Below, one piece after another: positions 4,300 to 32,993 of a DNA stretch of 35,964 bases. The first letter of the stretch is position 1. The number at the start of each line of letters is the position of its first letter. This DNA is from a virus (taxonomy: Duplodnaviria > Heunggongvirae > Uroviricota > Caudoviricetes). Under the pieces are notes generated by a model, which saw only the letters and a program-made list of their open reading frames with translations, searched no databases and was not told where the DNA came from. A program made the position numbers and the translations under genes. The stretch lies in the IMG/VR virus record IMGVR_UViG_2541047714_000007, one strand, 5' to 3'.

Positions 4300-5180
4300 A
4301 CACTCCTCGTCAGTATTCTGGCGGCCATTGCACTTAATCCCGGAGACATGCGGTTGAATGCTGTGCCGGCGGCGTTAAGCTGCCCGGAAACGGTATCCAG
4401 AGCACCTGCAATATTTCTTTTGTCCACACCACTCAGCGCAGACTGTGCCTGCTGTACATACGTGGCTGCTTCGCTGGCTGTTCTGGCCAGACTGATGGCA
4501 TCGGGCATGGATTCAGAGAGTGCGTTAAACGCCGGAACACTTTTCCCCAGAGCCCCGGAGATATTACCCAGTCCGCTCATCAGCCCCGGCACACGGGTCA
4601 GTGCGACAACGGGGTTATCCTTCATTTTCTGTGTCACCCGAACGGCGCTGATAGTGGTCTGGAGTACAGACTGCGCCTGTTTCGCATAGTTGACGCCGTT
4701 GCGGATGAACTGCGCCACCCCTGAAGGTGAAGGAATGGCACCGGAGACCGCCCCGACACCCGGGAGCTTCGTGCGTATTGCCGGTGGTTGCAGAGGATTT
4801 TTCGGGTCACCGGTGTATTCCCGGAGAGACACGGTGGCACTGACAGCCAGCACGTTGCCGGTACTGTCAGTCTGCTCGCTGGTTGCAGTCACATCGGTAA
4901 TCACGAACCAGCCGCGATAGTCACCGTTGCCGAAGACCAGCGCCAGTGCCTGATGGGCTTTCATGGCTGTTCGCAGTCTCGCCAGCTCCACATCGGGTAC
5001 ACAATAATGCTGATGGAAAACCAGAGTTATCTGGATTTCGTCCAGCCTGTCGCCGACGAACTGCAGGCCAGGCTTACCCCCGATGCGGGCATGCTCCGCA
5101 TAATCGACGCCGAACGTGGCCTCGAAGCCGTCCCAGTAGGTAATCAGCTCAAACTCAATATCACCCAGTACGGCAAACAT
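4296..5180 (-). CDS. Tail protein, P2 gpU-like N-terminal domain with C-terminal extension
   Basis: 294 aa; N-terminus MFAVLGDIEFELI...GKPGLQFVGDRLDEIQITLVF resembles my recollection of the gpU / Mu N N-terminal domain. Start overlaps the tape-measure stop. Confidence 0.55.
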   Translation of the reverse strand: MFAVLGDIEFELITYWDGFEATFGVDYAEHARIGGKPGLQFVGDRLDEIQITLVFHQHYCVPDVELARLRTAMKAHQALALVFGNGDYRGWFVITDVTATSEQTDSTGNVLAVSATVSLREYTGDPKNPLQPPAIRTKLPGVGAVSGAIPSPSGVAQFIRNGVNYAKQAQSVLQTTISAVRVTQKMKDNPVVALTRVPGLMSGLGNISGALGKSVPAFNALSESMPDAISLARTASEAATYVQQAQSALSGVDKRNIAGALDTVSGQLNAAGTAFNRMSPGLSAMAARILTRSV

Positions 5181-8131
5181 CAGCGGTACTCCTTACGTTG
5201 TTTCTGAGCCAGCAGACGCTCCAGCATTTTTTCCAGCTCATGCAGGCTCATATTCAGGGCGCCAGTCAGTCCGGCAGGCGCTGTGGTTTCCCTGCCATTG
5301 AGGAAAAACTGAGGATTAAAGCTGACCTGGATACCACCAGACGTTCCACCGCCGGTTGCAGCTGCACCACGGCCTGAATATCCGGCAGCCATGATTTCAG
5401 GCGAGGGGATACGGGGAACATCCGGTGTCATCTCATTTGCCAGACGTTGCCCTGGTAAAATCGATGCCCGGGTGGAGAGCGGGATAGCGGGCATGGAAGA
5501 CAAACTATTGATTACGGCTCCGATCGCATTTTTAGCAGACGACATAAACCCGTTGATATCGGGCAACGGCATACTGAAGCGAACACCTGAAGTGTTATCC
5601 CGTATTTCTGGCCCCTGAATGCTCACGGGCATTCTGGGGAGCAGTTCACTGGCCATTCGCTGCCCGGCCAGAGCTGCAAGCGGAGTGGTCCGCTGCAGGC
5701 CAATGGCGGCCCCCTGCGCGATATTGTCACCAAAGCCCATAAACACGCGGCTCGGCGAATGAATGCCCAGCTTTTCGCTGAACCAGCCACTGATGCTGTC
5801 ACCCATTCCGGTTACACTGGATTTGAGCGACTCCCATTTGTTTTTGATACCGTTAATCAGACCATCGACAAGATGGCCACCGAAGTCGGTAAACTTTGCC
5901 GGCAGATCAACACCAAGATATTTCAGCGCAGCTGCAAAGGCTTTACAGAGCAGACCTGCCGGCGACCAGTTAATCAGCAGCTTACCAGTTCCCGCGATAC
6001 CGCCGTTAAAGGCTTCCTGAATGTCAGCCCAGCGTTGTTCAAACCAGCTACTGATGCTGTCACCCATTCCGGTTACACTGGATTTGAGCGACCCCCATTT
6101 GTTTTTGATACCGTTAATCAGACCGTCGACAAGATGGCCACCGAAGCCGGTGAACTTTGCCGGCAGAGCAACGCCGAAATATTTCAGCGCAGCCGCAAAG
6201 GCTTTATAGAGCAGGCCTGCCGGCGACCAGTTAATCAGCAACTTACCAATTCCCACAATGCCGCCGTTAAAGGCTTCCTGAATGTCAGCCCAGCGCTGTT
6301 TAAACCAGCCACTGACTGCCCCCCAGTTGCGGTAGATAAGGTAAGCTGCTGCCGCGACAGCGGTGATAACGAGACCGATGGGATTCATCATCAGCGCACG
6401 TCCAATCCAGAGAACAGCACGTCCGGCGAGCATAATTCCGCGAACCAGTCCCCCGGAGAGCACGCCACTCAGTGTTCTGGCTCCTCTGGCGACGGCGCTA
6501 AATCCGGTCACCAGCCAGCGGAGCTTACCGCCTTGCCCCAGTGCGAGCGACAGACGAAGCCAGTTGGCCCGAAGTAAAACAGCATTTTTCCAGACACTTA
6601 CAAAGGGGGAAATAAGGAGATTCAGCCCCAGTTTGAGACCAACAGTCGCTATCTTAATCGCAAGGAGCGCACTGATGAGCTTAAAAGCCCCACTGACAAA
6701 TTGCGGGTGAGTCGCTACCCAGTGTTTTGTCCCCTGAATGAGTGGGAGCAGTTCCTGAGTCAGAGAAATAAAAGATGGAGCTAATTGATCGCCCAGCGTA
6801 ATTGCCAGATCGCGACTGCTGACCATAAGTGCTTTAGTGGCTTCAAGGGGAGATTTCAGCCGCTGATCATAAGCACTGGCAAGCAAATCGTTATCCGCAG
6901 CCCTGAGAGCACCGGCGCGGATCTCGCGATATCTGTCCATGTTGGCCAGCATCGGGCGGATAAATGCCATGACCTGCATATCCGCGAACATATCACCCAG
7001 ACCAAAGTTTTTCGCCAGAGCCTGAAGTGCCTCATCTCTTGCCGTATCATTCTTTATTTTCATGGCGGATTTGAAGCCGGCCAGCGCTTCGGGGCTTTTG
7101 GCATTGAGGTAACGTTCTATAACACTCAACATCCCTTCAATCGGAGAGATCCCCGCAGCCTTATAACTCGCAATAGATCCCTGCAAATCAATACCCAGAT
7201 CAGCAAACTGTTTCTGAGTATCGCGGGCAAAAATTTTGGTAAGAAAGTTTTTAAAATTATTGGCTGCCTCGTCGGTGGAACCTGCACCGATTTTTGCTAT
7301 CTGGAGACTGGCCCCGATTTCAGCAACAGCCTCTTTTCCACTGGCAATACCCGCCATCATTGGGGCCAGGGACTGCATCCACTTGACCTGATCCGGGATT
7401 TCAAATGACCCCTGGTCACCGGCATAAGCCATAATATTCTGAACGGCACCAAAATCTCTGGCCGCACCTTTCAGGGAGTTTTGCCAGACTGCGGCCACTT
7501 TTGCCCAGTCCTGAGATGACGTGCGTGTTGCCGTTGCCGCGCGGGCAATATCCGGCATCAGAAAACCGATATCTGACAAGTTATCAATATTGTCGCTGAT
7601 GAGCGAACCCACCGCCTCCTGCAGCTCATCCTGATACTGATTGTATTTAAGCGCCCAGCCTTTTATCTGTCCGGCAAGTGCATCCCGCGTTTTATTGTCA
7701 TATTTTGCGGTGATCGACATATCAATCATTTTGTCCTGAAAAGACATGGACTGCTGAACGGCAGGGGAAACGGTATGATAAACAGTCTGTGCCATGCCAT
7801 ACGCTTCAATCCCCTGACCATACAGCGCCATGCGGTTAGCTTTCAGCGCATCACTGGTAGCGGATGCCGCTGACAGACGGCGCTGCTGGCGCTCAATTTG
7901 CTCCATGGTGCGGCTTACCCGCAGCAGCTCGCTGTTGAGATGCTGCATCCGGGAAGAACCCAGTTGACCATAACGTTCTGTTGCACGGGTTAAAGCGTTC
8001 TGACGTTCCTGCAGGCGGCGTGAGGTATCGCTCAGGGAATCAAGCGCACGGCGGGTACCGCTCATTGCAGAACGGAATGTGCTGCCAATCATCCCGCCGA
8101 TAACAACGCCGACTGAAAACTGTCCCGACAT
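5180..8131 (-). CDS. Tail tape measure protein
   Basis: 983-aa ORF, longest in the window, Ala/Gly/Ser-rich with predicted helical N-terminal part, located between tail chaperone and baseplate genes. GGAGG 8 nt upstream of the ATG at 8131. Contains a two-copy 87-aa tandem repeat. Confidence 0.9.
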   Translation of the reverse strand: MSGQFSVGVVIGGMIGSTFRSAMSGTRRALDSLSDTSRRLQERQNALTRATERYGQLGSSRMQHLNSELLRVSRTMEQIERQQRRLSAASATSDALKANRMALYGQGIEAYGMAQTVYHTVSPAVQQSMSFQDKMIDMSITAKYDNKTRDALAGQIKGWALKYNQYQDELQEAVGSLISDNIDNLSDIGFLMPDIARAATATRTSSQDWAKVAAVWQNSLKGAARDFGAVQNIMAYAGDQGSFEIPDQVKWMQSLAPMMAGIASGKEAVAEIGASLQIAKIGAGSTDEAANNFKNFLTKIFARDTQKQFADLGIDLQGSIASYKAAGISPIEGMLSVIERYLNAKSPEALAGFKSAMKIKNDTARDEALQALAKNFGLGDMFADMQVMAFIRPMLANMDRYREIRAGALRAADNDLLASAYDQRLKSPLEATKALMVSSRDLAITLGDQLAPSFISLTQELLPLIQGTKHWVATHPQFVSGAFKLISALLAIKIATVGLKLGLNLLISPFVSVWKNAVLLRANWLRLSLALGQGGKLRWLVTGFSAVARGARTLSGVLSGGLVRGIMLAGRAVLWIGRALMMNPIGLVITAVAAAAYLIYRNWGAVSGWFKQRWADIQEAFNGGIVGIGKLLINWSPAGLLYKAFAAALKYFGVALPAKFTGFGGHLVDGLINGIKNKWGSLKSSVTGMGDSISSWFEQRWADIQEAFNGGIAGTGKLLINWSPAGLLCKAFAAALKYLGVDLPAKFTDFGGHLVDGLINGIKNKWESLKSSVTGMGDSISGWFSEKLGIHSPSRVFMGFGDNIAQGAAIGLQRTTPLAALAGQRMASELLPRMPVSIQGPEIRDNTSGVRFSMPLPDINGFMSSAKNAIGAVINSLSSMPAIPLSTRASILPGQRLANEMTPDVPRIPSPEIMAAGYSGRGAAATGGGTSGGIQVSFNPQFFLNGRETTAPAGLTGALNMSLHELEKMLERLLAQKQRKEYR
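5768..6315. repeat. Tandem in-frame duplication (2 x 261 bp plus a short partial third unit) inside the tape measure gene
   Basis: Protein copies GWFKQRWADIQEAFNGGIVGIGKLLINWSPAGLLYKAF... and SWFEQRWADIQEAFNGGIAGTGKLLINWSPAGLLCKAF... are near-identical. On DNA, the unit starting near 5768 repeats at 6029 (period 261 bp). The plus-strand shadow ORFs 5763..6020 and 6021..6209 also have near-identical translations. Confidence 0.9.
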
Positions 8132-20010: not shown

Positions 20011-20657
20011 TTCTGTAATCCTTCCCGTTCATCCAGCAGCGCGTTTATCTGGTTTCGCCAGCGACGACATTGCCCTGCGTTGTCGATGATGTTGGCGAGG
20101 ACGTCACGCTGGGAGACACCCGAATTGCGTAACCGGGCGTCAGCGGTTTCAGGTTGCCCGGTCGCTGTGCCAGAGCGGGTGCCAGCGGCGGCAACTGAGT
20201 CTGAATGACCGCTGTCGACGGATGCGTTGTCATATCCGAGTGCGGCGTTGTACTGGCGCACGAAACCGCGAGTAAACACGCACTCAATGGGATGGCTCTT
20301 ACCTTTTTCATCAATCCAGCGCTGTGTGACATCGTTAATTTGCCCCTGTAGTTGTTTATTCCGGCTCTCCAGTTGAGCAATCTGCTCAAGATAACCGGCT
20401 TCAGCCCGCTGCCCGGCAGCCACCTGCTCCTGATACCGTCTGGCCCAGGCCCGCAGCGCAGCATTCTCAAGCGTTGCCTGCTCCGTTTTGTACGCGTCAA
20501 ATGCTGACTGCAACTGACTGAGCGCGGTATCACCGTCACGCTTTGCAGAGTCATGACCACTTCTGTATCCCATGGCATACAGGCCGACCAGAAAGGCATT
20601 GATAAGAATGACCAGCAGAATGCCGCGCCACGGCAGCTTTTTCACCAGATGCCACAC
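20007..20657 (-). CDS. i-spanin (Rz-like)
   Basis: N-terminal TM helix WRGILLVILINAFLVGLYAMGY followed by a long helical periplasmic domain. Proposed GTG start at 20657 has GGAGG 8 nt upstream; the ORF-track start at 20759 is less likely. Contains an embedded lipoprotein ORF. Confidence 0.6.
   Translation of the reverse strand: MWHLVKKLPWRGILLVILINAFLVGLYAMGYRSGHDSAKRDGDTALSQLQSAFDAYKTEQATLENAALRAWARRYQEQVAAGQRAEAGYLEQIAQLESRNKQLQGQINDVTQRWIDEKGKSHPIECVFTRGFVRQYNAALGYDNASVDSGHSDSVAAAGTRSGTATGQPETADARLRNSGVSQRDVLANIIDNAGQCRRWRNQINALLDEREGLQK
20045..20311 (-). CDS. o-spanin (Rz1-like lipoprotein) embedded in the i-spanin gene
   Basis: ATG at 20311 begins MKKVRAIPLSACLLAVSCAS with a lipobox (LAVSC), followed by a Pro/Ser/Thr-rich mature region. 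Lies entirely inside the i-spanin gene in the +1 frame. Confidence 0.6.
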   Translation of the reverse strand: MKKVRAIPLSACLLAVSCASTTPHSDMTTHPSTAVIQTQLPPLAPALAQRPGNLKPLTPGYAIRVSPSVTSSPTSSTTQGNVVAGETR

Positions 20658-21375
20658 AACTGCTGCCTCCCCATGTGAGATATCGCGGTGCCAGTTCGCG
20701 CAGGATGCGCTGCGGATAATGGCGGTTCTCCCGCCAGCTGGCCGCATTGCGTCCGGCATTCACCGTGGCGACATGTCCGAACCAGCGGGTGCTGTCCAGA
20801 CCTTTCTGTGATGCAAGCCGCCTGTCCCGTTGTACCCAGCCCAGACCACCGTTATAGCCCGACAGTGTCATGGCCATACGCTCGCAGTCACTGGCGGCGC
20901 TGACGCGCTGCCACAGCCAGCGGTCATAGCTGACCAGCGCCCGGATGGCCCATGCCGGATTAAACGGCTCACGGCTGTTAAGCCCCGGCATCAGCTGACT
21001 TATCCAGTCAGCAGTGGCGGGCATGAACTGCGCCAGTCCCTGAGCGCCAGCCGGCGAGACCGCATCAGGTCGCCAGCCGCTTTCCTGATGCAGTTGCGCG
21101 GCGAAATCGGCCACCGGCGCAGACAGTCCCCATTCAAGCCGGGCATTACGGATCACATCATCGCGATACTGCAGCGCAGCCTGCGGAGGTTGTGCTGCGC
21201 ATGCCTGGCTGAAAAAGCCGCCACACCAGAGCAGCCAGACAATCACCAGGTTGCCAGCAAGCTGCCACCAGAAGCTGTATTTATCGTTACGTGGTTCGCC
21301 GTGTCTGATGGCGGTTACGCCCAGACCAAAGGCGAACAGAATAATGAGGGTGATTTGAGGCCAGTTCATGGTCAC
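20551..21375 (-). CDS. Endolysin, lytic transglycosylase (SLT domain) with N-terminal membrane/SAR-like region
   Basis: SLT catalytic motif region LHQESGWRPDAVSPAGAQGLAQFMPATA; two N-terminal hydrophobic segments (ITLIILFAFGLGVTAI, LAGNLVIVWLLWCGGFF). The 3' end overlaps the spanin gene by about 100 nt in another frame. Confidence 0.8.
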   Translation of the reverse strand: MTMNWPQITLIILFAFGLGVTAIRHGEPRNDKYSFWWQLAGNLVIVWLLWCGGFFSQACAAQPPQAALQYRDDVIRNARLEWGLSAPVADFAAQLHQESGWRPDAVSPAGAQGLAQFMPATADWISQLMPGLNSREPFNPAWAIRALVSYDRWLWQRVSAASDCERMAMTLSGYNGGLGWVQRDRRLASQKGLDSTRWFGHVATVNAGRNAASWRENRHYPQRILRELAPRYLTWGGSSCVASGEKAAVARHSAGHSYQCLSGRPVCHGIQKWS

Positions 21376-21722
21376 AGTCCTGTTGCCACAGCCAGACAGA
21401 CCGCTGCAACAATCAGTGCACGGCGGATTAACGCAGCAGAAAATACAAGGTGAAGGCCGGTCTGCACAGGGAAACGCCCTTCAGCCATCAGCCTGTCGTC
21501 ATGTTTCAGGTACTGACCGGGACGGGCTTTGGGGAAGAGCGAACGGTCAAGCCAGTAACCCAGCACTGCTGCCAGTGTGATGAGTGCCAGCTTGTAGATC
21601 ACAACAGGTAACTGCTGTGGTGAGACCAGAGCGATGGTGCCCAGCAACAGCACTGAGGTCAGCAGCCAGCCGCTGAGGCGAGGTTTTTTAACAGGGGGAA
21701 TGAATTTTTTCAGGTTTTTCAT
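21372..21722 (-). CDS. Putative holin / lysis membrane protein
   Basis: Multi-TM protein immediately upstream of the endolysin. Proposed start is the ATG at 21722 (MKNLKK...) with GGAGAC 4 nt upstream; the ORF-track start at 21755 lacks an RBS. Confidence 0.5.
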   Translation of the reverse strand: MKNLKKFIPPVKKPRLSGWLLTSVLLLGTIALVSPQQLPVVIYKLALITLAAVLGYWLDRSLFPKARPGQYLKHDDRLMAEGRFPVQTGLHLVFSAALIRRALIVAAVCLAVATGL

Positions 21723-21852
21723 GTGTGTCTCCTTGTCTGGTGGAGACAGCATCACAAATACAGGGCGCGAAGGATTTTAAAGCGCGTTAAGAGAGCCGGG
21801 GATACGGGATGTGCAGGATAAACGATGAATTATTCACAGAGGAGAATGCAAC
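21723..21852. promoter_or_regulatory. Divergent promoter region: late operon start (minus) and P-loop gene (plus)
   Basis: 130-bp gap between the first late gene and the oppositely oriented P-loop gene. Inverted repeat GTCTCC(21727-21732)/GGAGAC(21742-21747) overlaps the holin RBS. Confidence 0.35.
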
Positions 21853-22596
21853 ATGACACATACACTGAATCCGGTCATCACTGTCACCGTGTCCGGTCCT
21901 GTGGGCAGCGGTAAAAGTTACGTACTGGCGCGGATAGAGGAAGTGGTGAAACAGGAACTCGGAAACAGCGTCATTGTCGATGCCGCAGACGTGGACGGTG
22001 AGCGCCGTATGAGTGGCGATGATCTGACGACCTGGCAGAAGCCACGGGCTGGCACAGTGATCAGGCTGGAGGAATACACGGGACAGGGCCTGTTGTCATA
22101 CGGCGAGGAGCGTATCTGTCGGACGAATGAGCTACTGGATGTTATATGCCCCACGGGCCGGCAACCCTGGATACTGCCCGATGCACTGCATGCCACCATT
22201 GCGGCACTGATGACAGTTTACGATCAGGAGCTGCTCATGAAGGAGTTACGTAAACTCACCGGTCAGCCAACAGAATGTTGTTCGTCCCCGAAGTACGGGA
22301 AACAGGAACACATCCCGGTAAACACAATCCCCGTTAACCAGCCTCCCCGGTTCTTCGACGAATACATTCTGACACCGGAAAATAAAGCTGAGCATGAAGA
22401 GATCAAAGCGGCGTTGTTCCGGGAAATCAGGAAGATTGCTGAAATGCAGCTGGGGGGCGGGCTGGACAGAGTGATGGCGAGAGGAGAATGGGCATCGCTG
22501 TTTGAAAGAGTTTCCCCGGAATTACTTCCCCTCGCACTGGCTATCGGGATTATGCAGACAGCAGATAAACCTCACTTACGTTCATTAAACACGTAA
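21853..22596 (+). CDS. P-loop NTPase, kinase-like (function unknown)
   Basis: 247 aa; Walker A VSGPVGSGKSY at residues 13-23, then SVIVDAADVD about 18 residues later, an arrangement like small P-loop kinases (shikimate/gluconate-kinase or zeta-toxin-like fold). GGAG upstream of the ATG. Confidence 0.6.
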   Translation: MTHTLNPVITVTVSGPVGSGKSYVLARIEEVVKQELGNSVIVDAADVDGERRMSGDDLTTWQKPRAGTVIRLEEYTGQGLLSYGEERICRTNELLDVICPTGRQPWILPDALHATIAALMTVYDQELLMKELRKLTGQPTECCSSPKYGKQEHIPVNTIPVNQPPRFFDEYILTPENKAEHEEIKAALFREIRKIAEMQLGGGLDRVMARGEWASLFERVSPELLPLALAIGIMQTADKPHLRSLNT

Positions 22597-22976
22597 CGCA
22601 TAATCCGGGATACGCATTCAGCGATGACTGCATTTTCGCCGGTTTTTACTGCATCCAGAAGCAACTCTTTAAATGGTACGGGCCGGGGCTGCAGAAAGGT
22701 CGGCATGGCATTGAGCAGACAGAGCGTTTTTTCCGTGAGGACGACATCAGCCGCTCCCACAGCCAGCAACTGAGAGTAACGAATATAGCTGTTATCCCGA
22801 AGCCATATCAGCGTATCAATAAAATACCGGCACTTTTTCTGGTCGTGATCAACCTGGTCCGGGATATCGAAAAAACCAGAATAAATCAAAACCTGAGGTG
22901 CCGGATGCGTGTTCAGTAATCGGCAGAATATTTTGCCGGTGAGTACATAAAAATCATCATTTAAGGAGTGCATCAT
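22572..22976 (-). CDS. Hypothetical protein, convergent with the P-loop gene
   Basis: 134-aa ORF starting ATGATG at 22976; its 3' end overlaps the P-loop gene 3' end by 25 bp. Slightly AT-richer than the surrounding phage genes by eye. Confidence 0.4.
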   Translation of the reverse strand: MMHSLNDDFYVLTGKIFCRLLNTHPAPQVLIYSGFFDIPDQVDHDQKKCRYFIDTLIWLRDNSYIRYSQLLAVGAADVVLTEKTLCLLNAMPTFLQPRPVPFKELLLDAVKTGENAVIAECVSRIMRYVFNERK

Positions 22977-23190
22977 GAATCCCCGATTAACGTTAACAGA
23001 ACATCAGCGCCGTGCCGAAGCAGTGAACAATGTTCTGGAAGATATTATCCGGTTACATCGCGGAGAACTGAGTATCTGTCGTGCCACTGTTCATTTTCAG
23101 GAAATACAAAAGCAGTTCGATACTTCTGTTTTTGCAGAAGGGATCACTTATGCCCTGGACCAGATAAAGGCAGACAATCACCCCGGATAA
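22975..23190 (+). CDS. Hypothetical small protein
   Basis: 71-aa ORF with AAGGAG 6 nt upstream of the ATG at 22975; its start codon overlaps the divergent start codon of the 134-aa ORF. Confidence 0.35.
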   Translation: MNPRLTLTEHQRRAEAVNNVLEDIIRLHRGELSICRATVHFQEIQKQFDTSVFAEGITYALDQIKADNHPG

Positions 23191-23224
23191 TCCCTAAACC
23201 ACATTAACAGAAATCCCACTATCC

Positions 23225-23345
23225 CTGCCGCATCATGAAAGAACGACCAGCCCGGTGCTTCGGACCCACCGGACTGGCCATCGTCCCACAGAAGTGGCTG
23301 TGAGCCGACCGAGGTTCAGTCAGTCTCGCGAGACCAGACTAGCCT
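23225..23345. other. GC-rich structured intergenic element upstream of the methyltransferase gene
   Basis: Hairpin CCAGCCCGGTG-cttcggacc-CACCGGACTGG (11-bp stem, one mismatch) and a perfect 12-bp palindrome GTCTCGCGAGAC; no ORF. Confidence 0.35.
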
Positions 23346-23381
23346 GCCATATTTTTAATAATTGTAAAAGGCTTACAGATT

Positions 23382-24146
23382 ATGAAAATGCAGACATTAC
23401 CCATCGTTCCATGGATTGGTGGCAAACGCCGCCTTGCAAAACACATTCTGCCGCTGTTTCCGGCGCATGAATGTTATGTGGAGCCGTTCTGTGGGGCAGC
23501 AGCGCTCTATTTTCTTAAGACACCCGGCAAGATCGAAGTCATTAATGATATCAACGGTGAACTGGTGAATCTGTACCGGGTGGTAAAGCATCACCTGGAA
23601 GAATTTGTCCGCCAGTTCAAATGGGCGCTGGTCAGCCGTCAGATCTACAAATGGCTGCAGATCACCCCGGAAGAAACACTGACGGATATCCAGCGTGCGG
23701 CACGGTTCTACTACCTTCAGAAGCAGGCGTTTGGCGGCAAGGTGGCAGAGCACAGCTTCGGTACCTCCACCACATCCCCGCCACGCTTCAACCTGCTGCG
23801 TATTGAAGAAGAACTGTCAGCAGCACACCTGCGGCTTTCCAGAACAGTCATAGAACACATGGACTGGCAACAGTGCATTGAGCGTTATGATCGTCCGCAC
23901 ACGCTGTTCTACTGCGACCCACCGTACCTGGGTACGGAAGGCTATGGTGTGGATTTTCCTGAAGAGAACTACACACTACTCGCAGAACTGGCCCGGTGCA
24001 TCAGAGGAAAGATGATTATCTCGGTGAACGACATTCCGCAGATGCGTCGGGTGTTCACTGAACTGAACATACAGACGGTGAATATCAACTACAGTCTGGC
24101 GGGTAAACCCACGCCGCGCCGTGAACTGGTAATCTGCAACTTCTGA
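23382..24146 (+). CDS. DNA adenine N6-methyltransferase, Dam family
   Basis: N-terminus PIVPWIGGKRRLAKHILPLFPAHECYVEPFCGAAALYF parallels E. coli Dam (WAGGK...LVEPFVGAGSVF); catalytic DPPY motif present (YCDPPYLGTEGYG). Confidence 0.9.
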   Translation: MKMQTLPIVPWIGGKRRLAKHILPLFPAHECYVEPFCGAAALYFLKTPGKIEVINDINGELVNLYRVVKHHLEEFVRQFKWALVSRQIYKWLQITPEETLTDIQRAARFYYLQKQAFGGKVAEHSFGTSTTSPPRFNLLRIEEELSAAHLRLSRTVIEHMDWQQCIERYDRPHTLFYCDPPYLGTEGYGVDFPEENYTLLAELARCIRGKMIISVNDIPQMRRVFTELNIQTVNINYSLAGKPTPRRELVICNF

Positions 24147-24154
24147 AACAAAAC

Positions 24155-24180
24155 CGGAAAGCACAATGCTTTCCGGTAAA
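24155..24180. terminator. Hairpin between the convergent methyltransferase and repressor genes (putative terminator)
   Basis: Perfect 11-bp stem ACCGGAAAGCA-caa-TGCTTTCCGGT; on the minus strand it is followed by TTTGTTTC. Confidence 0.4.
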
Positions 24181-24262
24181 TCAGCCCATTCCTGCCATGC
24201 TACTGACGGCGCTTTCTGAAAGCGTCCAGATCAACCACCTGTCCTTTGTGTCCGGGTCAGAA

Positions 24263-24610
24263 TCAGCCTGTAAATTTACTTGGTTTGGGTTGAGTATAGA
24301 ATCGCCCAACCTCAAGAAATGAGCGTCGTTGTTCCGGAGTCATTTCATCAAATGCGTCCATTAATTTTTGTTTTTCTGGTGACATTTTTGGGACAACATT
24401 GGTCATTACATCCCCTCTCTGTCCTGTAACAACGTAAAGCACGTCAAGCCCTAAAGTAGCCCAAATTGCCAAAGCATCTGCTCCGGGAGCGGATTCATCC
24501 TTTTCCCACCGCAATTGGCTTTTATAGGATGCCCCCACCAATTCAGCAAACTCAGACTGACTAAATCCTAGGCGGTTTCTTTCTTCTTTTAATCGTGAGC
24601 CAAGTGACAT
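24263..24610 (-). CDS. XRE-family HTH repressor (immunity repressor candidate)
   Basis: HTH region SRLKEERNRLGFSQSEFAELVGASYKSQLRWEKDES typical of Cro/C1-type; divergent from the early operon. Start chosen at the internal ATG at 24610 (MSLGSRLKEE...); the ORF track extends to 24640. Confidence 0.65.
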   Translation of the reverse strand: MSLGSRLKEERNRLGFSQSEFAELVGASYKSQLRWEKDESAPGADALAIWATLGLDVLYVVTGQRGDVMTNVVPKMSPEKQKLMDAFDEMTPEQRRSFLEVGRFYTQPKPSKFTG

Positions 24611-24702
24611 TTTTGTCCAATACCTATTTACATATCCCATTTTTGGGATAATAATCTAACATATATAGAGCAAACATCATTGCGTTAATAAAGGAGGCAA
24701 CA
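24611..24702. promoter_or_regulatory. Immunity switch region (divergent promoters/operators)
   Basis: AT-rich 92-bp gap between the repressor and the Ner/Cro-like gene; inverted repeat TATCCCA-tttt-TGGGATA at 24623-24640. Confidence 0.4.
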
Positions 24703-24891
24703 ATGACTGCAGAGCAGGTCAAAGCCCATTTCCGCCGCAACGGAATCACCTTTACCCAGTGGGCAAAACAGAACAACTACACCCGAGCAGAGGTTTACCG
24801 CGTACTGAATGGACAGGTAAAAGCGAACTATGGCAAAGCCCATGAAATCGCCGTCAAGCTGGGATTAAAAACCATCACTGACGCCGCTTAA
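24703..24891 (+). CDS. Ner/Cro-like small DNA-binding protein
   Basis: 62 aa; AAAGGAGG upstream of the ATG; pattern RRNG...TR.EVYRVLNG...GKAHEIAVKLGL resembles Ner/Nlp-family proteins; first gene of the rightward operon. Confidence 0.55.
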   Translation: MTAEQVKAHFRRNGITFTQWAKQNNYTRAEVYRVLNGQVKANYGKAHEIAVKLGLKTITDAA

Positions 24892-29126: not shown

Positions 29127-29396
29127 ATGAAATCCACCACAGGTATCAACCAGCAAATCAGCAAAGTGCAGTCAGCCATTATGGCGCTTAAGGCGACGAA
29201 CACGGATGTACAAAGCATCACCATCAGGGGTAACAAACCTGTCATCCGCGTTTCCCGGAGTGCGCATTGCATGCGCATGCTTGAGCAGGGAAAGGCCTGT
29301 TATCTGTATACCGGACATGACAACAGGGGACGTTTCCGTCAGGGCGTTTTCGAACTGCACGGCTGTCGCGTCGTGTGGCCGGAATCTTTGTGGTAA
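29127..29396 (+). CDS. Hypothetical small protein (position of Mu kil/cim)
   Basis: 89-aa ORF translationally coupled to the B-like gene. Confidence 0.45.
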   Translation: MKSTTGINQQISKVQSAIMALKATNTDVQSITIRGNKPVIRVSRSAHCMRMLEQGKACYLYTGHDNRGRFRQGVFELHGCRVVWPESLW

Positions 29397-29423
29397 TCAG
29401 CATAACCGGAGAAATCATAAAAT

Positions 29424-29954
29424 ATGGCAAAAAGTACAAAAGGGGCAAAACGTATCAAGTCCGCAGCGGCACTCTGGGTACCAGGGACACGCGAAGAGGT
29501 CATTGAGGGCATCAGACTGCTCGGTGACGCACAACGTGAACTGGTCAGGGCTGAAACAGAAATGAATGACGCCATTGGCGATATCACCGCACGTTATGCC
29601 CCGCTCACCGAGAGCCTGAAAAAACGCATGGCCGAACTGCAGTCCGGTATTCAGACATGGTGTGAGGCACACCGTGATGAACTGACCGGCAACGGGAAGG
29701 TGAAGTTTGCTAACCTCACCACCGGCGAGGTGCAGTGGCGAAACCGTCCGCCGTCAGTCAGCATTCGCGGAGCGGATAATGTTATTGAACTACTGAGACG
29801 TCTGGGGCTTGAGCGCTTTATTCGTGTAAAAGAGGAAATAAATAAAGACGCCATCCTGAATGAAAAAGAGGCCGTGAAAAATATTCCCGGTATTACCATA
29901 AAAAGCGATATTGAGGATTTTTCAATAATTCCTTTTGAGCAGGATGTGCAGTAA
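29424..29954 (+). CDS. gam: Gam-like host-nuclease inhibitor (DNA end-binding protein)
   Basis: 176 aa. Segments MAKSTKGAKRIKSAAA, TEMNDAI, WCEAHRDELT, VRPPSVSIRG and IEDFSIIPFEQ closely track my recollection of Mu Gam (174 aa). Confidence 0.85.
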   Translation: MAKSTKGAKRIKSAAALWVPGTREEVIEGIRLLGDAQRELVRAETEMNDAIGDITARYAPLTESLKKRMAELQSGIQTWCEAHRDELTGNGKVKFANLTTGEVQWRNRPPSVSIRGADNVIELLRRLGLERFIRVKEEINKDAILNEKEAVKNIPGITIKSDIEDFSIIPFEQDVQ

Positions 29955-30048
29955 ACACACCACGTTAATTATTTAATAAAAACATTTTCTTTTTTATTCC
30001 GGCGTCAGCGCCGCGGGCTTCTGCACGCCGGAAACAGGAGAATTCATC
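29955..30048 (+). promoter_or_regulatory. AT-rich tract plus GC-rich inverted repeat in the early operon
   Basis: TTAATTATTTAATAAAAACATTTTCTTTTTTATT followed by CCGGCGTCAG...CTGCACGCCGG inverted repeat, then AGGAG RBS of the next gene. Confidence 0.3.
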
Positions 30049-30243
30049 ATGATATTTAAATGTATTCAGTGCGAAAGAGATATTACAACCCTGCGTTTTC
30101 ACAGCGCCATCGCCGTGATGTCCGGTAAATACCACATCCCTGCGGTACGCGTCACCCTGGTCTGCCCGTACTGCAGCCAGCATTTTTCGGCAGATGTGCC
30201 CGTTATGGAGTTCTCACGCCCGGACAGGGAGGACGCGCAATGA
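30049..30243 (+). CDS. Small zinc-ribbon protein
   Basis: 64 aa with CxxC...CxxC (CIQCERD ... CPYCSQ); AGGAG upstream. Confidence 0.5.
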   Translation: MIFKCIQCERDITTLRFHSAIAVMSGKYHIPAVRVTLVCPYCSQHFSADVPVMEFSRPDREDAQ

Positions 30244-30512
30244 TTACCCCACAGGAAGCACATCAGCGCGCCCGCGCCCTTGTTGAACGGTACCTCAACG
30301 AGTGTGAATGCCGTGACCTCACCGATATCATGTGCGCCCTGACGGCGTTAATCAGCATGGCCACGCAGGCCATTGTGGCGACTAACGGAAAGGAGGCCGC
30401 CCTGCAGATACTGGTGAACACACTCACCCACGCGGCAGAGCACGAGGTGCCGTACCGGATGGAAATCACTGCAGAAGGCGATCTGCACATCATTGTTGAC
30501 CGGAAGCACTGA
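30240..30512 (+). CDS. Hypothetical protein
   Basis: 90-aa ORF translationally coupled to its neighbours. Confidence 0.45.
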   Translation: MITPQEAHQRARALVERYLNECECRDLTDIMCALTALISMATQAIVATNGKEAALQILVNTLTHAAEHEVPYRMEITAEGDLHIIVDRKH

Positions 30513-30521
30513 GGGCGCGGT

Positions 30522-30827
30522 ATGACACGGAACACCATACTCACACGCACTGCCCTCTATCGTCTGGCCCTGCAGCGTTTCGGGCCGGACGCACAGGCCC
30601 TGAAACTGACAGAAGAGGCCGCTGAACTGGCGGCCAGTGCCGCCCGCAACCTGAACGGACAGGGCAGCGAAAGTGACCTCGCGGCAGAGCTGGCAGACGT
30701 GGAAATCATGACAGAGCAGTTGCGCCTTCAGGGGATGGGCCGGCTGATTGACTTCCACAAACAGAAAAAACTGGAACGCCTTGCCGCACGGCTGGGCGTC
30801 ATGTACACCGGAGATACTGAACAATGA
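30522..30827 (+). CDS. MazG-like nucleotide pyrophosphohydrolase (small all-alpha NTP-PPase)
   Basis: 101 aa with an E-x2-E ... E-x2-D arrangement (LTEEAAELAA ... AAELADVEIM) typical of MazG-like domains. Confidence 0.55.
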   Translation: MTRNTILTRTALYRLALQRFGPDAQALKLTEEAAELAASAARNLNGQGSESDLAAELADVEIMTEQLRLQGMGRLIDFHKQKKLERLAARLGVMYTGDTEQ

Positions 30828-31507
30828 CAGACCAGAATAAACACATTGAGAAATTGAAAAAGTTGCTGGCGCTGGCCGCATCCGGCAACCCACACGAGGC
30901 CGCTCTGGCACTGCGCCGTGCCCGTAAACTGATGGATGTTCACGGCATCACACATTCCGACATTGCCATGAGTGATATTGATGAAACCATCAGTCATTAC
31001 TGGCCGACAGGCAGTCTCCGTCCACCGCGCTACATGCTGGGCCTGATGAACATCATCCGCGAGGCATTTGGTGTTAACTCCATCATTCACCCCGGCACAT
31101 ATCCGGGTGTGGGGTTCTACGGCAACCGGGAACGTGCGGCACTGGCTGCATACACCTGGGAAGTGCTGGCCCGTCAGCTGAAAAAGGCGCGTCAGCAGTA
31201 TATCAGCACACAGAACAAAAGAATAAAAACTGCCACCCGTACCAGCCGTGGTGACCAGTTTGCTGAAGGCTGGGTGCTGGCCGTTATCAGTGAAATACAG
31301 TCCTTCGCCCTGACCGATGACGAACGTGAACTGATGCAGCAGTGGCTGGAACATAAATACCCGCAAACGCAAACCACCAGAGCGCGTAAACCGGGAAGAA
31401 GCCGCAATGGCGACGCCTCGCGCTATGCGGGGTTTCGTGAAGGGCAGAACGTCAGACTGCACCGCCCGGTCAGTGGGCAGGCACAACAGAAACTGGAGGC
31501 CAGATGA
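30824..31507 (+). CDS. Hypothetical protein with DUF2786-like N-terminal region
   Basis: 227 aa; N-terminus IEKLKKLLALAASGNPHEAALALRRARKLM resembles a widespread phage/plasmid domain of unknown function. Confidence 0.5.
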   Translation: MTDQNKHIEKLKKLLALAASGNPHEAALALRRARKLMDVHGITHSDIAMSDIDETISHYWPTGSLRPPRYMLGLMNIIREAFGVNSIIHPGTYPGVGFYGNRERAALAAYTWEVLARQLKKARQQYISTQNKRIKTATRTSRGDQFAEGWVLAVISEIQSFALTDDERELMQQWLEHKYPQTQTTRARKPGRSRNGDASRYAGFREGQNVRLHRPVSGQAQQKLEAR

Positions 31508-31939: not shown

Positions 31940-32381
31940 ACAACGTCTTATCCAGCTCATTCATATTGCCCGTAATGAACTGGGTATGGATGAAGACACC
32001 TACCGCCAGATGTTACAGGGGCTGACCGGTAAAGCCTCAACCAAAGGAATGGATACCACACAACTAAACTGCGTGCTGGAATCCATGAAAAAGAAAGGCT
32101 TTCGCGTTAAACCAGCCAGAAAAGCCAGCTCCGGTTTACCGCTGGATAACCATCCGCAGTCCAGGAAAATTCGTGCGCTATGGCTTGAAATGGCTGCTGC
32201 CGGCATTGTTCGTGACCGTTCAGAAAATGCATTAGCGAGGTGGATCAAGCGGGAAACGGGCATCAGCGCCCTGCGCTGGCTCAGTACTGAACAGGCAAGC
32301 AGTGTTATTGAGAAACTGAAGAAGTGGCAGCGCAGAGCTGCGGGAGTCAAACATGAGCGACCTGAATCAGTTTCGAAGTAA
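31929..32381 (+). CDS. gemA: GemA-like protein (Mu gp16 family)
   Basis: Start at ATGATG 31929 with AAGGAG upstream; sits immediately upstream of the Mor-like gene, as gemA does in Mu. Confidence 0.65.
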   Translation: MMTKQRLIQLIHIARNELGMDEDTYRQMLQGLTGKASTKGMDTTQLNCVLESMKKKGFRVKPARKASSGLPLDNHPQSRKIRALWLEMAAAGIVRDRSENALARWIKRETGISALRWLSTEQASSVIEKLKKWQRRAAGVKHERPESVSK

Positions 32382-32739
32382 AGGGCCGGAACTCCTGGTG
32401 GAGCTGGCACAGCATACCTCTGAGACCGTTCGCGAGATTATTGATATTGAGCCCGAAGTTGCCGACCAGATTGGTCAGGCCGTCGCGAACCGCATGATGC
32501 AGGTCTGGGGCGGGCAAAACGTTTATTTTCCTATGGGGATGAGATGGAAGATAAGCCAGCGTGACCGTGAAATCTATGAGGCGTTTAACGGACGTAACCA
32601 CCACGAACTGTCCCGCAGATTCAGGGTTTCAGTTCCCTGGATTTACAACCTGGTGAAGCGCGTAAGAAAGGAAGAAATCAGCCGGTTGCAGGGGCAGTTA
32701 TTCGAAGACGATGATGAACCGGATGACAGCCGGGATTAA
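32353..32739 (+). CDS. mor: Mor/C-family transcriptional activator
   Basis: 128 aa, acidic C-terminus, central region ...YFPMGMRWKISQRDREIYEAFNGRNHHELSRRFRVSVPWIYNLVKRVR... characteristic of the Mor family; located at the end of the early operon. Confidence 0.75.
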   Translation: MSDLNQFRSKGPELLVELAQHTSETVREIIDIEPEVADQIGQAVANRMMQVWGGQNVYFPMGMRWKISQRDREIYEAFNGRNHHELSRRFRVSVPWIYNLVKRVRKEEISRLQGQLFEDDDEPDDSRD

Positions 32740-32756
32740 TCAAAAGCGAGGTGATA

Positions 32757-32993
32757 ATGCGCTATAAAACCCCCAACAGCGCCCCCCTGAAGAAGGCAGA
32801 CCATGCAGATATGGCGATGGAAATTATCCGGCATTTTTTTGACGGTCTGACTTCTGCTGAGGCGAGATATGTTCTCCGGGAATGCGACAGGCTGATTGAC
32901 AACTCGCGCCTGCATATCGGGCCTGATGAAAATTGTGTTTTGTATTACGGGAAAGTTTTACGTAACCCACCACCACCGCCACCAAAGTGTTAA
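32757..32993 (+). CDS. Hypothetical small protein with poly-Pro C-terminus
   Basis: Start at the ATG at 32757 with GCGAGG 6 nt upstream; ends ...NPPPPPPKC. Confidence 0.4.
   Translation: MRYKTPNSAPLKKADHADMAMEIIRHFFDGLTSAEARYVLRECDRLIDNSRLHIGPDENCVLYYGKVLRNPPPPPPKC

Follow-up and report, generated by a model that had tools for sequence, protein, structure and literature searches.

Gene content and boundaries of the island

The stretch of DNA analysed here (hereafter, the window; 35,964 nucleotides, IMG/VR record IMGVR_UViG_2541047714_000007) is a BcepMu-like transposable prophage; it shares 95% identity with Escherichia phage PhiKM (genus Bcepmuvirus) and is the prophage Phi2 of the Escherichia coli ST131 reference strain EC958. 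Our subject is an accessory island of this prophage containing three genes, all labelled hypothetical protein in RefSeq: gene A (21853–22596, plus strand; 247 residues), gene B (22572–22976, minus strand; 134 residues), and gene C (22975–23190, plus strand; 71 residues). By comparison with its relatives, the oldest and deepest unit of the locus is the pair of genes B and C, with start codons overlapping on opposite strands, and we infer that the locus is prophage hotspot cargo with a predicted antisense-coupled expression.

The three open reading frames had been delineated correctly in an earlier reading made without database searches (the sequence-only reading), as had the 25-nucleotide 3′ overlap between A and B (22572–22596) and the overlap of the start codons of B and C, which share 2 nucleotides within CATCATG; when the second Met of B is used, the start annotated in most homologues, the two genes start 1 nucleotide apart. 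Gene B lies antisense between A and C, leaving no intergenic space. The three proteins match PHROG profiles over their full lengths (A, phrog_3787, E = 7e-167; B, phrog_2266, E = 1e-43; C, phrog_4490, E = 1e-49), their divergent relatives are assigned to the same families, and the three-gene arrangement is kept in Serratia prophages at 38–53% protein identity. Because of the end-to-end profile matches and the arrangement kept in Serratia, A, B, and C are regarded as genuine genes and not chance open reading frames.

The gene order around the island is the late/lysis operon (minus strand), A (plus), B (minus), C (plus), a Dam methylase gene (plus), a helix-turn-helix repressor gene (minus; 24263–24640), and the early operon, which encodes a transposase, an ExeA-type MuB analogue, Gam, and Mor. 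The placement between the lysis/late operon and the repressor gene agrees with the sequence-only reading, which was also right that none of the three is a core Mu-type gene and that they occupy an accessory slot of a Mu-type prophage. Comparison of related prophages showed that this slot is variable, close relatives either lacking the island or having a replacement. In E. coli N21, the homology to the window ends at 21793 and restarts at 23236, 32 bp separating the two points; considered as an indel, the island therefore spans 21794–23235, with the late-promoter region on one side and the Dam leader on the other. In Eco889, the homology extends to 22318, which is within the linker of gene A, and gives way to two unrelated minus-strand genes. 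The GC contents of B (0.46) and C (0.45) are lower than that of the window (0.545). The region is 100% identical to that of E. coli MS1657; among 5426 complete E. coli genomes, 636 contain matches to it and about 9% carry the island.

Gene A encodes a mosaic protein with a mini P-loop domain

The module boundaries of gene A were drawn from comparison with its relatives. The N-terminal domain (residues 1–75; 21853–22077, plus strand) contains the Walker A motif (GPVGSGKS; 21895–21918) and the IVDAAD strand, and is followed by a helical middle module (residues ~83–136), a Pro-rich linker of low confidence (residues 141–173; predicted local distance difference test score, pLDDT, below 50 in an AlphaFold2 model), and a C-terminal helical module (residues ~174–240; 22372–22572, plus strand), which is a stand-alone 89-residue gene in Serratia. 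An exhaustive HMMER search found 51 relatives among 1.84e9 representative proteins, nearly all aligning to residues 1–75 only. The N-terminal domain is thus the sole part common to the whole family, behind which the members differ in how they combine short helical modules, of which there are at least eight. In the AlphaFold2 model, residues 11–70 have pLDDT values above 90; DSSP assigns only helices and no β-strand to the N-terminal domain of this model (m32353a71e6b6), whereas the sequence shows three strand-like segments.

The sequence-only reading took the 247-residue protein for a small P-loop kinase or zeta-type toxin, for which the 134- and 71-residue proteins would be antitoxin or regulatory partners in a toxin–antitoxin or abortive-infection module. 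Both motifs on which it relied, the Walker A (GPVGSGKSY, residues 15–23) and IVDAAD (residues 41–46), are present; together with the position of the hydrophobic strand ending in Asp right after the first helix, they resemble the first 45 residues of nucleotide kinases, Zeta_toxin is found among the weak matches at the level of the Walker A motif, and the location in a variable prophage slot would suit a toxin. However, the best Pfam match is AAA_30 (E = 0.007), and Zeta_toxin remains below its cutoff (E = 0.18; 11.7 bits versus a cutoff of 22.3). The matches in Pfam, NCBIfam, and PADLOC are to generic P-loop families, do not exceed the Walker-A level, and all lie within residues 4–50. A search of the PDB returned nothing beyond Walker A matches, designed P-loop proteins among them. 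Gene A does not contain a complete α/β P-loop NTPase fold, and the conserved domain of 75 residues is, on its predicted extent, too short for one. The motif itself is not universal, as GxxxxGK[ST] is retained in 31 of 36 family members and three have GKN; moreover, natural variants of 182 residues lack residues 52–87 and 96–124, so that half of the N-terminal domain is gone. Because of the profile matches, the shape of the family, the losses of the motif, and these variants, the kinase likeness of gene A is confined to the first ~45 residues, and the P-loop 'kinase' that headlined the sequence-only reading is a red herring.

Genes B and C are linked to the C-terminal module of gene A

The same reading had made the two small proteins partners of the P-loop protein. 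As judged from the distribution of the modules among relatives, B and C travel with the C-terminal module of A, and not with the P-loop. In the complete E. coli genomes, the N-terminal domain and middle module are found in 570 genomes (620 places), and the C-terminal module, gene B, and gene C are each found in 499 genomes (529 places). BcepMu-like prophages of Serratia have, in order, the holin gene, genes for 89-, 139-, and 73-residue proteins, and Dam, the 89- and 139-residue genes being convergent with a 37-nucleotide overlap. The 89-residue protein (residues 14–67) is 46% identical to residues 182–233 of gene A (E = 2e-11 in BLASTP) and has no P-loop match; the 139-residue protein is 53% identical to B, and the 73-residue protein is 38% identical to C (E = 7e-12). 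In two further BcepMu-like lineages (L030 and L032), the A-type proteins (P0050 and P0043) end in the same C-terminal module and are followed by a convergent, overlapping phrog_2266 gene encoding 147 and 168 residues (34% and 27% identity to B), with a small gene starting atop the start codon of the B-like gene.

Conversely, in two relatives (L004 and L005), Dam comes immediately after the gene for a P-loop protein, and both B and C are missing. A natural deletion of 318 bp (22605–22922) in two IMG/VR prophages (L022 and L023) joins 22604 to 22923, whereby B is lost and A and C are kept, and the interior of B is matched by less than 80% in about 7 of the 499 E. coli genomes. The occurrence of B and C without the P-loop in Serratia, of P-loop proteins without B and C, and of an intact A beside a deleted B all speak against a kinase toxin controlled by two small partners.

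Geometry, spread, and sequence properties of the B–C pair

The Shine-Dalgarno sequence of C (AAGGAG, 22963–22968) lies within codons 2–4 of B, and that of B lies within the first codons of C. Since each ribosome-binding site is located inside the first codons of the other gene, any mRNAs from which B and C can be translated must be complementary over both sites; also, since B fills the space between A and C on the opposite strand, a rightward A–C–Dam transcript is antisense to all of B. The start-to-start overlap is 2–8 nucleotides in six of six lineages, and the 3′ overlap of A and B, 4–54 nucleotides long, is kept in four lineages.

Homologues of B with 27–53% identity occur in Serratia, the two other BcepMu-like lineages, P2-like phages, and a Campylobacter prophage, and a C-sized gene is found at the same position in L030, L032, Escherichia phage Midge, and the Klebsiella phage. 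The P2-like phages having the B family, detected by tblastn with a divergent B relative as query, are Midge, Klebsiella phage ST147-VIM1phi7.1, and Salmonella FSLSP004. In these phages, a 143-residue B homologue and a 63/64-residue gene are on opposite strands with starts overlapping by 2 nucleotides (CATG), with the replication gene A/DinI to one side of the pair and the portal gene Q to the other. The arrangement and position are the same in an E. coli D3 prophage, and this P2-type pair is present in 94 of the 5426 complete E. coli genomes. In P2-like phages, anti-phage systems are concentrated in the gpA–gpQ interval, a hotspot demonstrated by Rousset et al. (2022, PMC9122126), and WP_001407038, the small partner of the P2-type pair, is listed as hypothetical cargo in Table S5A of that paper. 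The validated three-gene 'hp+hp+hp' system of the P2 hotspot (335, 364, and 228 residues) was considered as a relative and found to be unrelated to A, B, and C.

Sequence and profile searches with B gave no match in Pfam, PADLOC, NCBIfam, or the PDB. Likewise, C and the divergent B and C relatives had no match in Pfam, NCBIfam, or PADLOC, nothing significant was found in the PDB for B or C, and a scan of genome contigs with the B alignment yielded no confirmed relative. With PADLOC-DB 2.0.0 in particular, a check that the sequence-only reading had proposed, B and C had no match and gene A had only Walker-A-level matches with E values of at least 0.005. The UniRef name 'DUF2513' of the Serratia homologue P0031 was not reproduced, as no match to PF10711 or any other Pfam family was obtained with thresholds of E ≤ 1 for the window protein and E ≤ 10 for P0031 and P0024; four further relatives were likewise negative. 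The record of phage Midge bears an HHpred note of a T7 gp5.5/gp5.7-like protein at 91.2% probability, which was not reproduced by hhalign; T7 gp5.5 and gp5.7 against the eight-sequence family alignment gave probabilities of 0.2% and 1.1%, respectively, with single-sequence templates and hence low sensitivity. Literature searches by accession, PHROG identifier, and DUF name retrieved no paper on A, B, or C.

A motif in B (WLrdNgYI ... vvLTeKtL) resembles, by eye only, the recognition helix and wing of a winged helix, a reading for which no profile or fold match was found in Pfam or the PDB, and the AlphaFold2 model of B has a pLDDT of 57. B has a grand average of hydropathicity of 0.05 and a maximum 19-residue hydropathy of 1.61, which is borderline, with no clear transmembrane segment. 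C is hydrophilic and contains one Cys.

Transposon insertions and polymorphism

Insertion counts for the island in EC958 are available from transposon-directed insertion-site sequencing (TraDIS; Phan et al. 2013, PMC3789825, Table S1). The 3′ part of gene A (EC958_1098), gene B (EC958_1099), gene C (EC958_1100), and Dam (EC958_1101) have 30, 39, 27, and 78 insertion sites, respectively, and are all scored non-essential, whereas the prophage repressor (EC958_1102) has 1 insertion site and is scored essential (PMC3789825). The fold changes of EC958_1098–1101 under serum selection were not significant in the same study. Because A, B, and C tolerate insertions while the repressor does not, a classic addiction module is disfavoured, contrary to the toxin–antitoxin proposal of the sequence-only reading. 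Two caveats apply: the known antitoxin gene yeeU was likewise scored non-essential (PMC3789825), and insertions in the island may be polar. With the insertions in B and C and the lack of a PADLOC match added to the evidence from gene A, the kinase-toxin model is largely refuted, and we consider it very improbable.

The insertion data bear equally on a second toxin–antitoxin arrangement, in which B would be the toxin and C, as protein and/or mRNA, its antitoxin (a type I/II hybrid), serving prophage stabilisation or abortive infection, with A incidental. The strict co-occurrence of B and C in six lineages, which represent two phage backbones and all have overlapping 5′ ends, the antisense overlap spanning both Shine-Dalgarno sequences as in 5′-overlapping type I systems, and the tolerated loss of B alone are all consistent with such a pair. 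It is nevertheless improbable, as 27 insertion sites fall in the 200-bp C gene and leave it non-essential (with the reservations that B may have been cut from its promoter and that yeeU scored alike), B has neither a clear membrane segment nor a match to a toxin family, and no C partner accompanies the B homologue of Campylobacter.

At the other extreme, the three genes might be decaying or neutral hitch-hikers, morons without current function, whose overlaps are accidents of compaction. The absence of a TraDIS phenotype in lysogeny broth or serum, the relaxed-looking ratios of nonsynonymous to synonymous polymorphism (pN/pS) of B and C within E. coli, and the frequent fusion, truncation, and deletion variants would fit this view. 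Against it, intact reading frames in the same peculiar architecture persist at 27–53% identity in Escherichia, Serratia, Klebsiella, and Salmonella on two unrelated backbones, the island is frequent in E. coli as described above, and the modules of A have pN/pS values of 0.1–0.3 within E. coli. We therefore regard neutral cargo as the least credible of the explanations considered.

Within the 499 genomes, C is more divergent than its neighbours (90–95% identical in 465 genomes, compared with 95–99% in 482 genomes for B). The synonymous divergence of B is unusually low (pS, 0.018, versus 0.04–0.14 in neighbouring genes), the counts being small.

Control region and transcription

An imperfect 20-bp palindrome (21774–21793; half-sequences ATTTTAAAGC and GCGTTAAGAG) is located at the centre of the divergent region between the holin gene and gene A. 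Its core is invariant in seven relatives, including the island-less N21 and Serratia, and is the best-conserved intergenic element there. The palindrome pattern (TTTTAAAGCGCKTTAA-type) recurs at 2330–2345 and 32754–32769, which together with the site at 21775–21792 gives four matches in comparison with 0.29 expected, all of which are intergenic; the former copy is in the gap before a gp25-like baseplate gene, and the latter is just after the mor gene. Judging from this distribution, the TTTTAAAGCGCKTTAA-type motif may be a late-activator site or a −10-rich promoter core. It is probable that the palindrome is a regulatory site shared by the lysis operon and the rightward A–C–Dam unit, of which Dam is the last gene, and that this common control site would be activator-dependent.

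A promoter scan detected no σ70 consensus upstream of gene A, and promoter/terminator and repeat scans of the island gave nothing beyond chance. A gene for a Mor-family activator is present at 32353–32739; for this reason, and because the island is absent from functional relatives, the idea that B or C is itself the late activator was rejected. In log phase, the Dam gene of Phi2 (M.EcoMIV, EC958_1101) is transcribed far below host dam, and no activity was detected (Forde et al. 2015, PMC4659465). Since its last gene is transcribed so poorly, the rightward unit would be largely silent in the lysogen.

These features also underlie an explanation in which the island, like the late mom operon of Mu, would be an operon for counter-defence or host takeover that accompanies Dam; A, B, and C would all serve the phage during lytic growth, and the shuffled modules of A would block host immunity proteins, either as decoys or as inhibitors. 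A and C lie immediately before a Dam of anti-restriction type and are read in the same direction, no σ70 consensus precedes A, a palindrome is shared with the late lysis operon, Dam is poorly transcribed in the lysogen, in which the genes are non-essential, and the extreme module shuffling behind a constant N-terminal domain suggests an arms race. However, B is encoded on the opposite strand and so cannot belong to that transcript, the P2-like B–C pair is situated in a hotspot that typically carries defence genes expressed in the lysogen, and no similarity to known anti-defence proteins was found, the T7 gp5.5 link of Midge not having been reproduced by the low-sensitivity hhalign comparison. 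We consider this explanation possible but unlikely.

Proposed organisation of the island

The explanation that we tentatively favour, with a likelihood somewhat short of even, is a composite island, namely, a conflict cassette in which expression of one strand would exclude that of the other. One layer of the island would be the gene family consisting of the 75-residue Walker-A mini-domain and freely shuffled small helical modules; in the window it appears to be joined by the disordered linker to a second layer, the putative conserved cassette comprising the helical module of ~70 residues (the C-terminus of A), gene B, and gene C. The rightward unit (A, C, and Dam) would start beside the palindrome shared with the lysis operon and would probably be transcribed in the lytic phase in an activator-dependent manner. 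B would be made while the rightward unit is silent, i.e., in the lysogen, and may act as an effector or regulator of a phage–phage or phage–host conflict function such as exclusion, with C and the C-terminal module of A as its candidate lytic-phase antagonists. A conflict role was also what the sequence-only reading had envisaged, and it is still the most plausible class of function, although the kinase toxin with two partners on which that reading rested is not.

A more specific version of the B–C part is rather unlikely as it stands: B–C would be a novel type of mobile two-gene switch, the overlapping 5′ ends of whose mRNAs silence each other, and B would be an exclusion or regulatory factor of the lysogen that is turned off in the lytic phase by C, assisted by the helical A module. 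The same joint proposal, held at the same low likelihood, includes the N-terminal domain of A as a natural stand-alone mini P-loop, which would serve as a constant handle for the shuffled effector modules.

Several observations weigh against the composite conflict cassette. The promoters and the timing of expression of A, B, and C are predictions from sequence, and no σ70-like promoter was found close to B, the only minus-strand candidates being at 23388–23361 and, internally, at 22811–22782. The B homologue of a Campylobacter curvus prophage (30% identity) is located in an ordinary co-directional early operon, where its neighbours are unrelated to A or C and no C-like partner is present; the B protein therefore does not require antisense coupling. 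None of the three island proteins shows homology to a characterised family of defence, anti-defence, toxin, or regulator proteins, and the near-neutral isoelectric point of B (6.8) disfavours a DNA-binding regulator. Finally, the pN/pS values within E. coli (B, 0.54; C, 0.76), which are based on very few substitutions, do not provide strong proof of short-range purifying selection.

Neighbouring genes and other features of the prophage

On the left, the island adjoins the minus-strand lysis/late operon with the genes for a holin (21372–21755) and an SLT transglycosylase (20551–21375). In the holin mRNA (minus strand, 21727–21747), the Shine-Dalgarno sequence GGAGAC is paired in a hairpin with 21742–21747, and the Serratia holin gene has a different but complementary pair (CTCCAT...ATGGAG) at the same place, which suggests translational control of lysis.

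On the right, a leader (23236–23381, plus strand) forms the downstream boundary of the island and is conserved in the island-less N21 and in Serratia. It contains a GC hairpin (23247–23277); the GC-rich arms of the hairpin in this leader of ~150 nucleotides vary between lineages yet remain complementary, and no T-run follows. This hairpin could be a processing, attenuation, or translational-control element. An Rfam scan of 21300–24800, which includes the leader, found no RNA family match. The leader is followed by the gene for the D12-class DNA adenine methyltransferase Dam (23382–24146, plus strand; M.EcoMIV of EC958), identified by PF02086 (E = 8.5e-29) and by MTase_II of PADLOC (E = 1e-111). 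Between Dam and the repressor gene, a terminator-like hairpin with an 11-bp stem followed by a T-run is present on the minus strand (24153–24177).

The gap between Dam and the repressor gene is a second variable slot (~24150–24260 in the window; 5031–7246 in N21, which is L003; 4668–6326 in L002; 7738–8820 in L004). In N21, it contains a weakly KwaA-like protein (E = 8e-5) and a protein of the NA37 nucleoid-associated family, and in other relatives it contains unrelated, uncharacterised genes. A 135-residue gene adjoining the repressor in L004 was examined as a possible B homologue and rejected, as it is not homologous. The prophage copy of E. coli MS1657 has an IS66-family insertion (ISCro1) in the head-gene region (L010, 10188–12803), which is absent from the window, and its tape-measure gene is annotated as a pseudogene. 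Farther to the right, EC958_1112 and EC958_1114, both included in the serum-resistome table of EC958, appear from locus-tag order (genes 10 and 12 after EC958_1102) to belong to the early region of Phi2 (equivalent to ~29200–31500), and a mutant of EC958_1112 has an altered O-antigen pattern (PMC3789825).

Comparison with known systems

The island resembles the cargo of the P2 gpA–gpQ hotspot (for example, old and tin; PMC9122126) in its variable slot within near-identical prophages, its low GC content, and its exchange between backbones. It differs in that A, B, and C match no PADLOC model, that the 'hp+hp+hp' system is unrelated, and that the BcepMu-like island is in a unit probably expressed in the lytic phase and does not adjoin the repressor. 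The unit of interest is the B–C pair, which has been transferred between Mu-like and P2-like phages, lies in hotspots of two prophage families, is frequent among clinical E. coli, and is a candidate for a new phage-conflict system; the island, carried also by the pandemic ST131 lineage, still has only 'hypothetical' genes.

The P-loop nucleotide kinases and zeta toxins (PF06414) share with gene A an N-terminal strand, the Walker A motif, a helix, and then a hydrophobic strand ending in Asp. In contrast to these proteins, the conserved domain of gene A ends at residue 75, with no significant profile or fold match. In contrast to zeta toxins, gene A has no co-directional epsilon-like antitoxin, and the Ser/Thr of the Walker A motif is replaced by Asn in some members. 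The laboratory 'P-loop prototypes' are about the same size as the 75-residue domain, and the rarity of this family (51 representatives in 1.84 billion) may make it of interest as a minimal nucleotide-binding module.

The late com–mom operon of Mu is similar in that DNA modification is encoded by a transcription unit of its own in a transposable phage, near activator-dependent late promoters; here, A and C are accessory genes that fall after the promoter region and before the methylase leader. However, the enzyme here is a D12 Dam-type methyltransferase and not Mom, C with its single Cys is not a Com-type zinc finger, and in prophages of the N21 type, which lack the island, Dam still has its leader and functions.

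For the B–C pair, the closest parallels are 5′-overlapping modules controlled by antisense RNA, such as the type I toxin–antitoxin systems symE/SymR and tisB/IstR-1 and the immI region of P22 (mnt/arc–ant with sar RNA), which is a second, non-essential prophage control region. In these modules, as predicted for B–C, divergent transcripts are complementary across the ribosome-binding site and start codon, and one strand can silence the other. A type II toxin–antitoxin system would be a co-directional bicistronic operon, whereas A and B are convergent, and B and C are divergent with overlapping starts. In comparison with immI and the type I systems, B–C has no intergenic operator region and no similarity to Mnt, Arc, Ant, or known type I toxins. 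Unlike a type I pair of a small hydrophobic toxin and a non-coding RNA, both strands of B–C encode conserved proteins (134 and 71 residues); if the proposed coupling is true, B–C would be an unusual case of two protein-coding genes coupled by obligatory antisense 5′ ends.

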